This document shows positions 1 to 6,441 of a stretch of 6,441 nucleotides of DNA, piece by piece. Origin of the DNA: a virus (taxonomy: Duplodnaviria > Heunggongvirae > Uroviricota > Caudoviricetes); the IMG/VR virus record IMGVR_UViG_2690316278_000002; one strand, 5' to 3'. Numbering within the stretch: the first letter of the stretch is position 1; every line of letters starts with the position of its first letter. The translations under genes were made by a program, and so were the position numbers. Under the pieces are notes generated by a model, which was given only the letters and a program-made list of their open reading frames with translations, made no database searches and was not told the DNA's origin.

Positions 1-592
1 CAGCGTCCTCCGCCGGAAATTGAGCAATAAGCTCACCTGTTCGTTCAGCGAGCTCGCGTGCATCACATGGAATGTCTTCTATGTAAACGGGTATCCCAAT
101 ATGCAGCTACGATGCTGAAGCAGTANNNNNNNNNNNNNNNNNNNNNNNNNNNNNNNNNNNNNNNNNNNNNNNNNNNNNNNNNNNNNNNNNNNNNNNNNNN
201 NNNNNNNNNNNNNNNNNNNNNNNNNNNNNNNNNNNNNNNNNNNNNNNNNNNNNNNNNNNNNNNNNNNNNNNNNNNNNNNNNNNNNNNNNNNNNNNNNNNN
301 NNNNNNNNNNNNNNNNNNNNNNNNNNNNNNNNNNNNNNNNNNNNNNNNNNNNNNNNNNNNNNNNNNNNNNNNNNNNNNNNNNNNNNNNNNNNNNNNNNNN
401 NNNNNNNNNNNNNNNNNNNNNNNNNNNNNNNNNNNNNNNNNNNNNNNNNNNNNNNNNNNNNNNNNNNNNNNNNNNNNNNNNNNNNNNNNNNNNNNNNNNN
501 NNNNNNNNNNNNNNNNNNNNNNNNNNNNNNNNNNNNNNNNNNNNNNNNNNNNNCCTCATCACTCACGACTTGACTTCCAGAAATAACCTTGA

Positions 593-2230: not shown

Positions 2231-3092
2231 TTACTTCACAACTCCCGGAAAGCTGACATTTGAACGCCAGCTATCCCAGTTAAACGTCACCCACCGACAA
2301 CCGTTCATGGTCATGCGGTCCATAATCCTCTCACCAAGAAGCGTGCTCATTGCGGCATGATTCAGGTTTGTTAACANNNNNNNNNNNNNNNNNNNNNNNN
2401 NNNNNNNNNNNNNNNNNNNNNNNNNNNNNNNNNNNNNNNNNNNNNNNNNNNNNNNNNNNNNNNNNNNNNNNNNNNNNNNNNNNNNNNNNNNNNNNNNNNN
2501 NNNNNNNNNNNNNNNNNNNNNNNNNNNNNNNNNNNNNNNNNNNNNNNNNNNNNNNNNNNNNNNNNNNNNNNNNNNNNNNNNNNNNNNNNNNNNNNNNNNN
2601 NNNNNNNNNNNNNNNNNNNNNNNNNNNNNNNNNNNNNNNNNNNNNNNNNNNNNNNNNNNNNNNNNNNNNNNNNNNNNNNNNNNNNNNNNNNNNNNNNNNN
2701 NNNNNNNNNNNNNNNNNNNNNNNNNNNNNNNNNNNNNNNNNNNNNNNNNNNNNNNNNNNNNNNNNNNNNNNNNNNNNNNNNNNNNNNNNNNNNNNNNNNN
2801 NNNNNNNNNNNNNNNNNNNNNNNNNNNNNNNNNNCGCGTATTTTTGCCCGTCGTTCTGCACCTGATAATTCGCAAACGAGCATTTGCTGTGCAGAGGCTG
2901 GATGCCCGAACGATTCAGGATTTTTTCCACCCGCAACTGGCGATTCTGGCGGTTAATCTCCTCGCTGCGTTTTCGTCCTTCAGCAAGTTGCCATTCCCGC
3001 CACTCCTCCACCGTCCGGTACGGTGGAACCGCCCCCTGTGGTGCAAGTCTGTGAATACGTTCAAGAACCCCGGCTGCCGCAATGTTTTTCAT
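2231..3092 (-). CDS. DnaC-like replicative helicase loader (prophage paralog, YdaV-position); central ATPase region masked; apparent frame discontinuity across the mask
   Basis: N-terminus (3092 down to 2835) MKNIAAAGVLERIHRL...NRSGIQPLHSKCSFANYQVQNDGQKYA matches E. coli DnaC (...NRSGIRPLHQNCSFENYRVECEGQMNA) as I recall it. C-terminus (2376 down to 2231) LTNLNHAAMSTLLGERIMDRMTMNGCRWVTFNWDSWRSNVS matches the DnaC C-terminus (LTNSNMEEMTKLLGERVMDRM...WVIFNWDSYRSRV). The two visible parts are in different reading frames (span 862 nt = 3n+1). The start ATG is 6 bp downstream of the initiator's stop. Confidence 0.75.
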
Positions 3093-3098
3093 GCCACA

Positions 3099-4163
3099 TC
3101 ACCCCCTGAATCCCGGCGGAATTTCGGTATCCGGTTCAGAAATATGATTCACACAACGCTGGTTGTTCGTGCCGCTTACCGGGAGCAACCAGGGGTTTTC
3201 AAAATTCCGGTCCGGCCCAAAAAACGTCGTCGCTCGCTGAACAAATTCCGTTCCCGCTTTCCCGGTCGCCGCCAGGTATCTCGCGTAACGCCTCACACCA
3301 TCCAGCATGGTCTCTGGTGGCACCCCCTCGCGCAATCTGGCCTTCCAGGCACTGAATGCGGATTTCTTCGGGTTTGCCCCGGCACGCAACGGGTATTCCC
3401 GCCAGACCTGTTCGAACACATCCGGATAATCCACTCGTCCCACAGGCTGCCCGGTGTTTTCCGGGGCTACCCGATCGGCTTCCCGCTGAATGGCGGAATC
3501 GGCTTCAGGCTGCTGCAGTTGGAGTGATTGCTCCGGCCTTGCGGTCATCACCTGCTGCACAGCGCCCGAATCGGCTTTCAGCGCATACGCTGAATCGGCT
3601 TCCGGTGTCGAGCCTGCTGGCTGACCAGGATTGACGGTCTGAACATCCCCTGCCTGGTTCGTGGCGTTTTTTACGCCATGGACCATAGTGTTTTGATCTT
3701 CTTTATCTGTATCTTTATCTGTATCTGTCGTGACTCGTCGTGACATGTGCGTGACATTTCGTGACGCGCCGTGACAATCGCCATTTTGTTCCCGCTTTCT
3801 TTCCCTCTCTCGCTGCGCCCTCTTGCGCTCTGCAGGAGATTTTGCGGTTTGCGAAATATTGCCGTTGTCCTCTTTAAGCACCTGGCGTTTTTCCCATCCA
3901 GTGATTAAATCACCATCAAGTACCCGCCCCTGCATCGTCTGCAAAATTGAATCAATTACCTCTTCTGTCACGTCGAGCGCACTTGCCAAATCTTCTGTCG
4001 TGACATCAATGTGACCTCGCGTGACATTTCGTGACGCGCTCACCAGGAGGTGGATATACACTGCCATCACTGTTGCAATTGGCTGCCCTGACACCCTGGC
4101 AATTGTTCGCCACTTAGGGTCATTTGGCATGTCATGCCATAATCTGAGCCAGGCGTTAGCCAT
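3099..4163 (-). CDS. Phage replication initiation protein with DnaT-like C-terminal tail (YdaU-position), containing intragenic iteron-like repeats
   Basis: 354-aa ORF from ATG 4163-4161 with SD-like GAGGTGAGT immediately upstream (the track's first codon at 4169 is GTG). The C-terminus ...NHISEPDTEIPPGFRG resembles the C-terminal tail of E. coli primosomal protein DnaT (...VSEPDSQIPPGFRG, as I recall it). It sits immediately upstream of a DnaC-like gene, as in the chromosomal dnaT-dnaC operon. The protein carries an internal repeat SRNVT...VTT(E/D)D encoded by the GTGAC arrays. Confidence 0.7.
   Translation of the reverse strand: MANAWLRLWHDMPNDPKWRTIARVSGQPIATVMAVYIHLLVSASRNVTRGHIDVTTEDLASALDVTEEVIDSILQTMQGRVLDGDLITGWEKRQVLKEDNGNISQTAKSPAERKRAQRERERKREQNGDCHGASRNVTHMSRRVTTDTDKDTDKEDQNTMVHGVKNATNQAGDVQTVNPGQPAGSTPEADSAYALKADSGAVQQVMTARPEQSLQLQQPEADSAIQREADRVAPENTGQPVGRVDYPDVFEQVWREYPLRAGANPKKSAFSAWKARLREGVPPETMLDGVRRYARYLAATGKAGTEFVQRATTFFGPDRNFENPWLLPVSGTNNQRCVNHISEPDTEIPPGFRG
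3701..3724. repeat. Exact tandem duplication of the 12-mer CTTTATCTGTAT within a T-rich tract next to array A
   Basis: CTTTATCTGTAT at 3701-3712 and again at 3713-3724, followed by a partial CTGT. On the minus strand it encodes the low-complexity peptide DTDKDTDKED. Confidence 0.6.
3730..3775. repeat. Iteron-like array A: five direct GTGAC motifs phased at 10-11 bp
   Basis: GTGAC at 3730, 3740, 3751, 3761 and 3771 (spacings 10, 11, 10, 10). Contains the 19-mer GTGACATTTCGTGACGCGC (3751-3769), which recurs exactly at 4021-4039. Confidence 0.55.
3967..4039. repeat. Iteron-like array B: four direct GTGAC motifs phased at 10-11 bp plus one inverted copy
   Basis: GTGAC at 4000, 4011, 4021 and 4031. 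An inverted GTCAC lies at 3967-3971. TCTTCTGTC is repeated at 3961 and 3991. The 19-mer at 4021-4039 is identical to 3751-3769. Confidence 0.55.
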
Positions 4164-4234
4164 ACTCACCTCTTCTGATACCGAATCTTTTTACTCACGA
4201 GTTGCCGGGAGCGATTCGATATGGCTATTGTCAG

Positions 4235-4660
4235 TCAATGTACTGCCACAGCATTTCCTGCCGGGCCACCACGGTTCATCTGATTGAAACCGGCGATTGC
4301 CACTGCGACAAAATCATCAGCGTCTCTCACCAGTCGTTCATGCGTCTCCACCAGTTCCCGAAAATAAGCTGAACTGTGGCTGCGCATTCGAGCCACCAGC
4401 GGAGGTGGCATTGCCCTTTCGATCGCAGGTAACAACGCCTGAATTTTTTCAACAGCGTCAGGGGTGTCTTTATCCAGCCAACGGAAAATCTTTTGGGTGT
4501 TGAGATAAAGCGTGTTGTGCTTGCTGTCGTTATGCAGAACCGGAAACGTCATTCCCAGTTCGAAATAAACCCTGGTTATTTCAGCTGCCGGAACTTTTTC
4601 ACCGTCCGGATGCGCCCAGGCTTTCATCGCCATGCGGATGTGTTCATGCTTGATTTTCAT
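4235..4660 (-). CDS. ydaT: YdaT-family protein (putative toxin / cII-position regulator of Rac-like prophages)
   Basis: 141-aa ORF starting MKIKHEHI..., matching my recollection of the N-terminus of E. coli Rac YdaT. Its ATG (4660-4658) overlaps the stop of the upstream Cro-like gene (4659-4657) in an ATGA arrangement. G-rich SD-like GGCGGGGG lies upstream. Confidence 0.7.
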   Translation of the reverse strand: MKIKHEHIRMAMKAWAHPDGEKVPAAEITRVYFELGMTFPVLHNDSKHNTLYLNTQKIFRWLDKDTPDAVEKIQALLPAIERAMPPPLVARMRSHSSAYFRELVETHERLVRDADDFVAVAIAGFNQMNRGGPAGNAVAVH

Positions 4661-4920
4661 GAATCAACCCCCGCCGATGGTTGTGTGTTAGCCTGAAACT
4701 CAGCAGGCAAGCCGTCAGTTGGGTTGGGGTAGGTTTTACTGTCAATCTCATGTGGGGTCACCACCCATCCCGTTGCTTCACACCAACGTAATATTTTTTC
4801 TCCTGTAAGTTTTGCACGCCCCGTTATAACGTGGCTGACCATCCCTTGGGATGCGCCAACAATCTCAGCAAATGAACTCTGGGTTATATGAAAATGATGC
4901 AAATATTCTCCAAGATTCAT
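4657..4920 (-). CDS. Cro-like HTH DNA-binding protein (first gene of the early operon; YdaS-position)
   Basis: 87-aa ORF from the first ATG (MNLGEYLHHFHITQSSFAEIVGASQGMVSHVITGRAKLTGEKILRWCEATGWVVTPHEI...). Helix-turn-helix-like segment QSSFAEIVGASQGMVSHVI. Divergent from the cI-like gene. Weak SD-like AGGG about 7 nt upstream. The track ORF starts at TTG 4947; I prefer ATG 4920. Confidence 0.7.
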   Translation of the reverse strand: MNLGEYLHHFHITQSSFAEIVGASQGMVSHVITGRAKLTGEKILRWCEATGWVVTPHEIDSKTYPNPTDGLPAEFQANTQPSAGVDS

Positions 4921-5031
4921 AATCCGCCCTATGTGATGTGTTACCAATGCATAATTAATAGCACTGTTATTTTTAAAAGTAAATAGTGATGCTATTTCAA
5001 AGTGATTAGCAATCTTATTAGAATTGGATGT
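4921..5031. promoter_or_regulatory. Divergent promoter/operator region between the cI-like and Cro-like genes
   Basis: 111-bp AT-rich intergenic spacer between divergent starts (4920 minus, 5032 plus). Two 15-bp operator-like sites: AATAGCACTGTTATT (4957-4971) and the near-perfect palindrome AATAGTGATGCTATT (4982-4996), centres 25 bp apart. Candidate + strand promoter: -35 TTCAAA (4996-5001), 17-bp spacer, -10 TAGAAT (5019-5024), which puts the transcript start at or next to the ATG at 5032 (leaderless, as for lambda PRM). Candidate minus-strand promoter: -35 TTTACT (complement of 4978-4983), 17-bp spacer, -10 TATTAA (complement of 4955-4960). Promoter hexamers were assigned by eye. Confidence 0.5.
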
Positions 5032-5459
5032 ATGAAAAGAAAATCATTGTCAGACACCGACCTCAACGCCGCCAGAAGACTGAAAGAAATCTGGATGGCA
5101 AAGAAATCTCAGTTGGGATTGACTCAGGAACGTGCGGCGGAAATTATGGGGTTTTCAACACAAGGGGCGGTAAGTCACTACCTAAATGGTCAAACCCCAC
5201 TAAACCTTGAGGCTGTTCTAAAGTTTGCTGGCTTACTGAAAGTTCCCCCTGAGTCAATCAGGCCAGACATGGTAGATTTGCTGCAAATTGCAAGGATGTA
5301 TTGTCGAGAACCACAGCAAGATAACATAGTCGCATTACCAGCAGACACAGAACAAACAGAGGATGAACTACCGTTTGCCGTAGAGCCGATGGAACGAGAT
5401 TTAATCCATACGTTCAGAGCTTTTCCGAAAGAAGATCAAGAACACATGCTTCAGGAGAT
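5032..5459 (+). CDS. cI: Lambda cI-like phage repressor, N-terminal HTH domain plus linker (partial; 3' end hidden in N-mask 5460-6407)
   Basis: Translation from ATG 5032 (MKRKSLSDTDLNAARRLKEIWMAKKSQLGLTQERAAEIMGFSTQGAVSHYLNGQ...LKFAGLLKVPPESIRP) lines up with my recollection of the lambda CI N-terminus ([47 protein letters not shown]...LLAKILKVSVEEFSP). It is divergent from a Cro-like gene. The 469-aa ORF in the track is an artefact of reading through the N-run; the true stop is not visible. The GTG at 5002 is an alternative start but 5032 is the first ATG. Confidence 0.8.
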
Positions 5460-6441
5460 NNNNNNNNNNNNNNNNNNNNNNNNNNNNNNNNNNNNNNNNN
5501 NNNNNNNNNNNNNNNNNNNNNNNNNNNNNNNNNNNNNNNNNNNNNNNNNNNNNNNNNNNNNNNNNNNNNNNNNNNNNNNNNNNNNNNNNNNNNNNNNNNN
5601 NNNNNNNNNNNNNNNNNNNNNNNNNNNNNNNNNNNNNNNNNNNNNNNNNNNNNNNNNNNNNNNNNNNNNNNNNNNNNNNNNNNNNNNNNNNNNNNNNNNN
5701 NNNNNNNNNNNNNNNNNNNNNNNNNNNNNNNNNNNNNNNNNNNNNNNNNNNNNNNNNNNNNNNNNNNNNNNNNNNNNNNNNNNNNNNNNNNNNNNNNNNN
5801 NNNNNNNNNNNNNNNNNNNNNNNNNNNNNNNNNNNNNNNNNNNNNNNNNNNNNNNNNNNNNNNNNNNNNNNNNNNNNNNNNNNNNNNNNNNNNNNNNNNN
5901 NNNNNNNNNNNNNNNNNNNNNNNNNNNNNNNNNNNNNNNNNNNNNNNNNNNNNNNNNNNNNNNNNNNNNNNNNNNNNNNNNNNNNNNNNNNNNNNNNNNN
6001 NNNNNNNNNNNNNNNNNNNNNNNNNNNNNNNNNNNNNNNNNNNNNNNNNNNNNNNNNNNNNNNNNNNNNNNNNNNNNNNNNNNNNNNNNNNNNNNNNNNN
6101 NNNNNNNNNNNNNNNNNNNNNNNNNNNNNNNNNNNNNNNNNNNNNNNNNNNNNNNNNNNNNNNNNNNNNNNNNNNNNNNNNNNNNNNNNNNNNNNNNNNN
6201 NNNNNNNNNNNNNNNNNNNNNNNNNNNNNNNNNNNNNNNNNNNNNNNNNNNNNNNNNNNNNNNNNNNNNNNNNNNNNNNNNNNNNNNNNNNNNNNNNNNN
6301 NNNNNNNNNNNNNNNNNNNNNNNNNNNNNNNNNNNNNNNNNNNNNNNNNNNNNNNNNNNNNNNNNNNNNNNNNNNNNNNNNNNNNNNNNNNNNNNNNNNN
6401 NNNNNNNATGACGGCAGGGTTCAATCTTTAACTATGCAGCA

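Follow-up and report, generated by a model that had tools for sequence, protein, structure and literature searches.

The window analysed here, by which we mean the whole stretch of 6,441 nucleotides in the IMG/VR record IMGVR_UViG_2690316278_000002 (Caudoviricetes), carries on its minus strand a Cro-like helix-turn-helix (HTH) gene coupled to a gene of the ydaT family and, divergent from them, a repressor gene (Table 1). The order of the repressor, cro-like, ydaT, O-like and DnaC-like genes is that of cI, cro, cII, O and P in phage lambda, with YdaT between the Cro analogue and the replication initiator and divergent from the repressor, the position that characterises its family. Both reading frames and the ATGA overlap between them, which had been pointed out in an earlier note on this DNA, are borne out by the sequence. 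The unmasked positions 2835-5459 are 100% identical over 2625 bp to a Shigella chromosome (CP032523.1, locus L010). As developed below, the locus is a heteroimmune member of the characterised PaaR2/YdaS/YdaT-type immunity region, these three proteins being the analogues of CI, Cro and CII.

Table 1. Features of the immunity region, in window coordinates.
Feature	Position	Strand	Description
O-like replication initiator/replisome organiser	3099-4169	minus	phrog_3729, E 3e-250; directly downstream of ydaT
ydaT	4660 (ATG) to 4235 (TGA)	minus	141 aa, YdaT-family transcription factor
Conserved joint	4637-4672		36 bp: YdaT-box and first 8 ydaT codons
YdaT-box (operator OM)	4650-4667		Perfect inverted repeat TTGATT-N6-AATCAA
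ATGA stop/start overlap, cro-like/ydaT	4660-4657	minus	4 nt, read from sequence
GGGGG, Shine-Dalgarno-like	4668-4672	minus	7 nt upstream of ydaT ATG; putative function
Cro-like gene	4920 (ATG) to 4657 (TGA)	minus	87 aa, XRE-type HTH, cro/ydaS position
Repressor/Cro-like intergenic region	4921-5031		111 bp
Candidate PR promoter of the cro-like/ydaT/O operon	4983-4955	minus	TTTACT-17 nt-TGcTATTAA, extended -10, identified by eye
Predicted operator, OR1-like	4957-4971		AATAGCACTGTTATT; inverted-repeat pair I1; overlaps candidate PR -10
Predicted operator, OR2-like	4982-4996		AATAGTGATGCTATT; abuts PRM-like -35
Predicted operator, OR3-like	5005-5019		ATTAGCAATCTTATT; between PRM-like -35 and -10
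PRM-like promoter	4996-5024	plus	TTCAAA-17 nt-TAGAAT; only consensus promoter in a scan of 4150-5100
Repressor gene	5032-5459	plus	142 codons visible, rest N-masked

A YdaT protein close to that of CP-933P

The product of ydaT matched the Pfam model YdaT_toxin (PF06254) with 36.9 bits, over a gathering cutoff of 21 (E 5e-9), so that its assignment to the YdaT family in the earlier note stands, and it also matched phrog_163, described as 'CII-like transcriptional activator' (E 3e-40). Residues 1-141 aligned without gaps to two Protein Data Bank (PDB) entries, 3c4r (E 4e-79), an E. coli structural-genomics entry, and 8bt1 (E 3e-70), the YdaT of the O157:H7 cryptic prophage CP-933P. The CP-933P reference locus (L013) was retrieved with the first 61 nt of paaR2, reassembled from published primers; its YdaT, which is the 8bt1 construct, is 76.6% identical to that of the window. 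At the level of clades, the window protein is 77-87% identical to the CP-933P clade, compared with 33% to the Rac clade. It keeps Arg60 and Trp61 of the recognition helix alpha3, and the roles of the Arg and Trp of this helix have been described (PMC9986795, PMC11879457). Judged from these homologies, the protein is predicted to be composed of a POU-like HTH domain and a C-terminal alpha6 tetramerisation helix, and would be a functional analogue of lambda CII within the CP-933P clade. The orthologous gene is labelled 'activator protein cII' in several phage records.

The ydaT allele of the window contains a divergent patch at 4481-4600, corresponding to nucleotides 61-180 of the gene (codons 21-60). 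In comparison with L006 and L001, two of the related loci described below, 21 of 60 nt differ in the patch block, versus 0-6 per 60-nt block over the 3' half of the gene (nt 181-426). Residues 41-53, which form the alpha2-alpha3 loop, read VLHNDSKHNTLYL here and ELYDDSHPEALAR in relatives; the operator is nevertheless unchanged. This loop, a proposed DNA contact, has been described as variable across the YdaT family (Prolic-Kalinsek et al. 2023, PMC9986795). Inside ydaT, in antisense orientation (4426-4441, plus strand), there is also a hairpin resembling a terminator, with a T-run after it, which recalls the OOP antisense RNA of lambda cII. No promoter was found for it and it had no Rfam match, nor did Rfam at gathering threshold return anything in the whole window.

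The Cro-like gene and its overlap with ydaT

The Cro-like protein narrowly missed the HTH_3 threshold (20.8 bits, cutoff 23) and matched phrog_35 ('transcriptional repressor', E 8e-17). It did not match the Pfam YdaS model (PF15943) even at E values up to 10, while CP-933P YdaS, used as a positive control, scored 46.5 bits on the same model (cutoff 30); moreover, blastp detected no similarity between the Cro-like protein and CP-933P YdaS. The protein therefore differs from YdaS, as the earlier note had claimed, and by sequence appears to be a Cro/YdaS by position that lies outside the YdaS family (PF15943/COG4197). It is 100% identical to WP_001048456.1 of E. coli RMDEC465. NCBIfam gave HigA/HipB-type HTH matches, all of them sub-threshold, and PADLOC weak HTH-type matches only; the idea that the protein is an antitoxin, which the HigA/HipB-type matches could suggest, was rejected as generic XRE similarity. 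The exact YdaT and Cro-like proteins are found on at least 1000 public contigs, mostly of Shigella sonnei, where the former is labelled 'toxin YdaT family protein' or 'Rha family transcriptional regulator' and the latter 'helix-turn-helix transcriptional regulator'.

At the junction of the two genes the minus strand reads ...GTTGATTC ATGA AAATC..., or with longer flanks ...GGGGTTGATTC-ATGA-AAATCAAG..., and the same ATGA overlap was found in the closest complete E. coli relative (L001, 95.4% identity), in a Rac-like prophage (L003), in phage Tritos (L006), in L008 and in CP-933P. Such an overlap is by itself common in operons, and as it is inherited together with the conserved joint described in the next section, it is not informative about these two genes in particular. 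Where the window has its GGGGG run, CP-933P has GGAG.

The YdaT-box and the conserved joint

In CP-933P, a YdaT-box of the form 5'-TTGATT-N6-AATCAA-3' has been footprinted at the ydaS/ydaT junction, where YdaT binds with high affinity (Prolic-Kalinsek et al. 2023, PMC9986795), and the corresponding site has been footprinted in Rac as well (PMC11879457). The window has a single zero-mismatch YdaT-box, and it lies at the cro/ydaT junction, as in CP-933P and Rac; on the minus strand it reads TTGATTCATGAAAATCAA. By our own arithmetic, about 4e-4 sites with these 12 specified bases would be expected by chance in 6.4 kb. The only other box-like sites in the window, at 570-587 and 1862-1879, have 2-3 mismatches and are not above chance. 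The 6-bp spacer of the box, with the adjacent half-site base, contains both the ydaT ATG and the cro TGA, which makes the ATGA overlap part of the operator.

The box belongs to a 36-bp joint, present in all the ydaT alleles examined, that is 97% identical even to a Rac-type locus (H82) whose YdaT is 33% identical to that of the window. Phage matches and most genome matches to the window end at 4665-4672, just past the box, and the CP-933P primers F-PRE, YdaS_RT1 and F-YdaT (PMC8630535, Table S3) match the window exactly at 4628-4660, while the CP-933P ydaS reverse primer agrees with it only for the initial 12 nt, up to and including AATCAAC. The joint marks a mosaic boundary between an immunity module (cro and repressor) and a ydaT-replication module.

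All ydaT alleles examined have a near-identical box, some of them with 1-2 changed bases. One case is L001, where a half-site is altered (positions 6541-6561 of that locus, AAAACCAA instead of AAAATCAA) and the second ydaT codon is changed from Ile to Thr. When the junctions were compared, those of L002, L004, L005 and L007 included, cro alleles were seen to use the shared junction DNA in two frames, ending either in ...GVDS* with a 4-nt overlap or in ...LIHENQA* with a 17-nt overlap onto ydaT.

A hybrid repressor and its predicted operators

The repressor matched HTH_3 with 36.2 bits, and its residues 2-82 are homologous to residues 3-82 of lambda cI (PDB 1lmb, E 1.3e-9; 1rio, E about 1e-9). 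In the identical Shigella locus the full-length gene (4129-4629 of L010) encodes 166 aa, as it does in L001. The last 44 aa of the L010 protein are 52% identical to the C-terminus of PaaR2 (E 2e-14), this being the only similar part, and no Peptidase_S24 domain was matched in the 166-aa repressors of L010 and L001 (the C-terminus is masked in the window). By sequence the repressor would then be a hybrid of a lambda-cI-like DNA-binding domain and a PaaR2-type tail. The earlier note had called it a lambda cI-type repressor rather than RacR, which holds for the N-terminal 80 residues but not for the PaaR2-like C-terminus. Without the S24 self-cleavage domain, such an immunity repressor would presumably escape inactivation by RecA.

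Three 15-bp pseudo-palindromes with the consensus AATAGCA-N-TGCTATT, their centres 23 and 25 bp apart, occupy the region between the divergent genes and are predicted to be operators. Two more copies are present in L010 at 3528-3542 and 3554-3568, between parE and ydfA, in what would be the PL region. Allowing up to 3 mismatches, five such 15-mers were observed in the 10.4-kb locus, all of them in these two regions, compared with 0.43 expected in shuffles; as the pattern was defined by the three right-hand operators, independent support comes from the two left-hand sites only.

The repressor ATG (5032) follows the PRM-like -10 at a distance of 8 nt, which predicts a leaderless repressor mRNA, like those of paaR2 and lambda cI (PMC8630535). 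The candidate PR of Table 1 was not reported by the consensus promoter scan, and a second candidate PR uses TTGAAA at 5000-4995.

Neighbouring genes and the identical Shigella locus

After the O-like gene come a DnaC-like loader and DUF1627 and DUF977 proteins. Within the O-like gene, two clusters of four CGTGAC/TGTGAC hexamers with a spacing of 10-11 bp were noticed at 3737-3775 and 3997-4035, the clusters being 260 bp apart; they look like iterons and may mark the replication origin of the prophage, as in the O gene of lambda.

On the other side of the switch, in L010 and its sister loci L009, L011 and L012, the repressor (145-166 aa as called) is followed by PaaA2 (PF21217, 64 aa) and by a ParE toxin (ParE_toxin, PF05016, 96 aa), an arrangement also found in L001 and L008. 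This paaA2-parE architecture was read in the identical locus L010, the corresponding window positions 5460-6407 being N-masked and 173 nt longer than the L010 interval (948 versus 775 nt). The other masked runs are 126-553, 1006-1220 and 2377-2834, the last of them 458 nt long versus 343 nt in L010; the lengths of the runs are unlike those of the L010 intervals. In addition, 50 bp of L010 are missing from window positions 1-125.

Beyond parE, the Shigella loci have ydfA-like genes and then IS1 or the host dmsBC genes. The Shigella prophage is a truncated lambdoid remnant: its left arm is cut by IS1 or another insertion sequence beside host dmsB/dmsC, about 3 kb past the repressor (positions 1-2700 of L009 and L011, and 1-240 of L010). 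What survives in this remnant is the block of immunity, toxin-antitoxin and replication genes, and an addiction effect of ParE could be the reason why it has been retained in Shigella.

Proposed circuit

We consider it highly probable that the region is the rightward early part of a lambdoid immunity switch, with a Cro-like and a CII-like (YdaT) regulator, and that the whole circuit works as follows. The repressor, translated from an mRNA that begins at 5032 and is probably leaderless, would bind the three 15-bp operators and silence the rightward promoter. When active, this promoter would give one transcript encoding the Cro-like protein, YdaT and the replication proteins, and the Cro-like protein would act as counter-repressor at those same operators. 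YdaT would be translated from the ATG that overlaps the cro stop, with the GGGGG run as its own ribosome-binding site, so that the two proteins would be made together. A YdaT tetramer would then bind TTGATTcatgaaAATCAA, the inverted repeat spanning the ydaT start codon, and activate a leftward promoter, whose transcript would run antisense through cro into the repressor gene and, in the identical Shigella locus, on into paaA2-parE. Its role would equal that of CII and PRE in phage lambda.

Gene order, homologies, the exact operator and the mosaic boundaries were read directly from the DNA, and DNA binding by this allele, promoter activation and the proteins that would bind the 15-bp operators are taken from the experiments on CP-933P and Rac. 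The YdaT proteins of these two prophages, only 30% identical, cross-bind and cross-activate through the box (PMC11879457), and with 77% identity and a perfect box, the allele of the window very likely would bind and activate alike.

Several observations weigh against this circuit. Binding and activation are attributed to this allele by analogy with CP-933P and Rac, and in the alpha2-alpha3 loop (residues 41-53), the proposed DNA contact, the allele has a divergent patch. The consensus scan found no convincing leftward PRE-like promoter in the cro antisense strand; a relaxed scan gave two weak 8/12 matches, CTGACC-17-AACAAT at 4835-4863 and another at 4894-4923, neither of which we assigned, although a weak leftward promoter is expected if it is activator-dependent. 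YdaT changed the repressor level of CP-933P only modestly (PMC8630535), and the authors call it a 'repressor' as well as an activator. Finally, in Shigella the prophage is truncated by IS1 and has host dms genes near the repressor side, so that choosing between lysis and lysogeny may no longer be a function of the circuit.

This last point leads to the possibility that the module is an inert relic of a decayed prophage, its genes still intact simply because the Shigella sonnei clone is of recent origin. In the Shigella loci, IS1 and the host dmsBC genes have taken the place of the left arm, no more than about 3 kb from the repressor, which would fit such a view, as would the facts that the exact-protein matches are dominated by one clonal species and that some members of the cluster are truncated. 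However, all five switch and toxin-antitoxin genes are intact and the YdaT-box is perfect, and the combination of cro, repressor and ydaT occurs at 83-95% DNA identity, with its reading frames preserved, in 69 diverse complete E. coli genomes. CP-933P is likewise cryptic and its circuit is functional and bistable (PMC8630535). We therefore regard an inert relic as unlikely.

The earlier note had described the Cro-like/YdaT pair as a candidate toxic early module, that is, one that would harm the host upon repressor loss, possibly in the manner of a toxin-antitoxin pair. The family names, 'Bacterial toxin ydaT' in Pfam and 'toxin YdaT family protein' at NCBI, point in this direction; expression of Rac YdaT leads to filamentation and death (PMC11879457; PMC5700377), and over-produced lambda CII is also toxic according to work cited in PMC5917428. 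Nevertheless, the YdaT of the window falls in the CP-933P clade and not in that of Rac, and for CP-933P YdaT, its closest characterised homologue, no toxic effect was observed; the protein, shown by experiment to be a functional analogue of lambda CII, activated the otherwise silent leftward promoter PRE933P, and the authors concluded that the pair is no toxin-antitoxin system (Jurenas et al. 2021, PMC8630535). Rac YdaT binds the racR-ydaS intergenic region and the promoter of the host gene rcsA, whereas CP-933P-clade YdaT does neither and cannot activate rcsA (PMC11879457). Its fold is that of a DNA-binding POU-like HTH tetramer (PMC9986795), and an earlier test for toxin-antitoxin activity was negative, as reported by the papers that cite it (Christensen-Dalsgaard 2010). 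Moreover, neither YdaT nor the repressor matched a defence system in PADLOC, the NCBIfam scan gave no model, toxin-antitoxin or other, for YdaT, and it is across the switch that the actual toxin-antitoxin genes lie, namely paaA2-parE, as read in the identical Shigella locus. A toxic module is thus unsupported and, in our estimation, very unlikely; the toxic framing follows the Pfam name and the 2017 Rac studies and is outdated, and the best prediction from sequence is that the YdaT of the window is a regulator without intrinsic toxicity.

That YdaT mainly acts in a negative sense, as an autoregulator or a roadblock that would stop rightward transcription at the ydaT start codon, ahead of ydaT and the replication genes, without leftward activation, seems to us barely credible, in spite of the box covering the ydaT ATG and of YdaT being called a repressor whose protection spreads over about 95 bp at higher concentration (PMC9986795), since in Rac the expression of ydaT was the same with or without an intact box while the reverse promoter inside ydaS, which feeds racR, was activated 29-fold in a box-dependent manner (Wons et al. 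2025, PMC11879457), and since CP-933P YdaT turned on PRE933P (PMC8630535).

Exchange of modules among prophages

Lambdoid phages are classically mosaic where cro meets cII. In the present analysis, ydaT-like DNA was found in 3050 of 5426 complete E. coli genomes (56%), at up to 7 places per genome, and the present cro/repressor combination in only 69. In a comparison of nine loci, identity was 81-100% for YdaT of the CP-933P clade, whereas the Cro proteins next to it are of at least 5 unrelated or distant types, with 12-50% identity. Exchange also went the other way: between phage Tritos (L006) and the Rac-like prophage L003, identity is 100% for the cro and repressor genes but only 33% for YdaT, which shows that recombination took place right at the YdaT-box joint, the exchange running opposite to what the earlier note had proposed. 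The modular exchange around a conserved YdaT core that had been suggested there is thus correct, if commonplace, with respect to the immunity parts, but YdaT too is swapped against a constant cro and repressor. The argument from genetic context has been made before (Casjens 2003; Jobling 2018, PMC5917428).

We also entertain, as a speculation that we rate as rather doubtful, the idea that the joint at 4637-4672 is both an operator and a recombination linker, allowing module swaps in either cro frame, and that YdaT thereby sustains a network across prophages that reinforces lysogeny. As many as seven ydaT copies are found together in one genome; if the idea were true, the YdaT of one prophage could switch on the repressor and toxin-antitoxin genes of its heteroimmune neighbours, and the hybrid repressor, with its lambda-cI DNA-binding domain and PaaR2-type tail, would be one product of such shuffling.

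The structure, operator, activation and cross-reactivity of YdaT are already published, the exact sequences are in thousands of database records, and the locus opens no new question; a modest interest remains in the hybrid repressor and in the 36-bp operator joint, which may serve to link modules in recombination and to carry a signal across prophages. In any case, the analysis calls for a correction of annotation, as thousands of Shigella and E. coli records bear the labels 'Toxin YdaT' and 'Rha family regulator', which obscure what would be a CII-type lysogeny regulator. In addition, the locus offers a natural heteroimmune counterpart to the CP-933P model, which could help to test how specificity and bistability are encoded.

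Comparison with known systems

The closest known system is that of CP-933P (Sp12) of E. coli O157:H7, whose paaR2-paaA2-parE2 genes are divergent from ydaS-ydaT in the same order and orientation as in the identical Shigella locus. Relative to that locus, its PaaA antitoxin is 75% and its ParE toxin 67% identical. The YdaT-box is identical, ydaS ends in ...DGVDS* and shares with the Cro-like gene of the window the ...GVDS* C-terminus and the ATGA overlap, and the structure of CP-933P YdaT consists of a POU-like HTH domain and a four-helix-bundle tetramer (Prolic-Kalinsek et al. 2023, PMC9986795; PDB 8bt1). The intergenic region measures 97 bp in CP-933P, compared with 111 bp here, where a leaderless repressor start is predicted. 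Unlike in CP-933P, the Cro-like protein is unrelated to YdaS, the DNA-binding domain of the repressor is lambda-cI-like and not PaaR2-like, the predicted operators are 15-mers of the AATAGCA-N-TGCTATT type in place of GTTTAGTAA-type repeats, and the alpha2-alpha3 loop of YdaT falls in a divergent patch. Together, the differences in Cro, repressor DNA-binding domain, operators and YdaT loop indicate an immunity specificity different from that of CP-933P.

The racR-ydaS-ydaT genes of Rac in E. coli K-12, of which Krishnamurthi 2017 and Bindal 2017 are reportedly further studies, encode a YdaT of the same Pfam family, likewise placed between cro and the replication genes. This protein is only 33% identical to that of the window, and the repressor and Cro differ as well; the annotation of the Rac-like locus L003 shows no toxin-antitoxin pair beside the repressor. 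The Rac YdaT-box, ATGATTCATGAAAATCAA, overlaps the ydaT ATG, its spacer ATG being the start codon (Wons et al. 2025, PMC11879457), and it differs from the box of the window by one base.

Finally, with respect to phage lambda, the window differs in that its repressor would be without the S24 self-cleavage domain and in that a toxin-antitoxin pair, as read in the identical Shigella locus, takes the place of rexAB. It resembles lambda cI-cro-cII/PRE in the proposed circuit logic, in gene order and in the homologous N-terminal domain of the repressor, and also in two features that are predicted here, the three operators between divergent promoters and the leaderless mRNA of the repressor.

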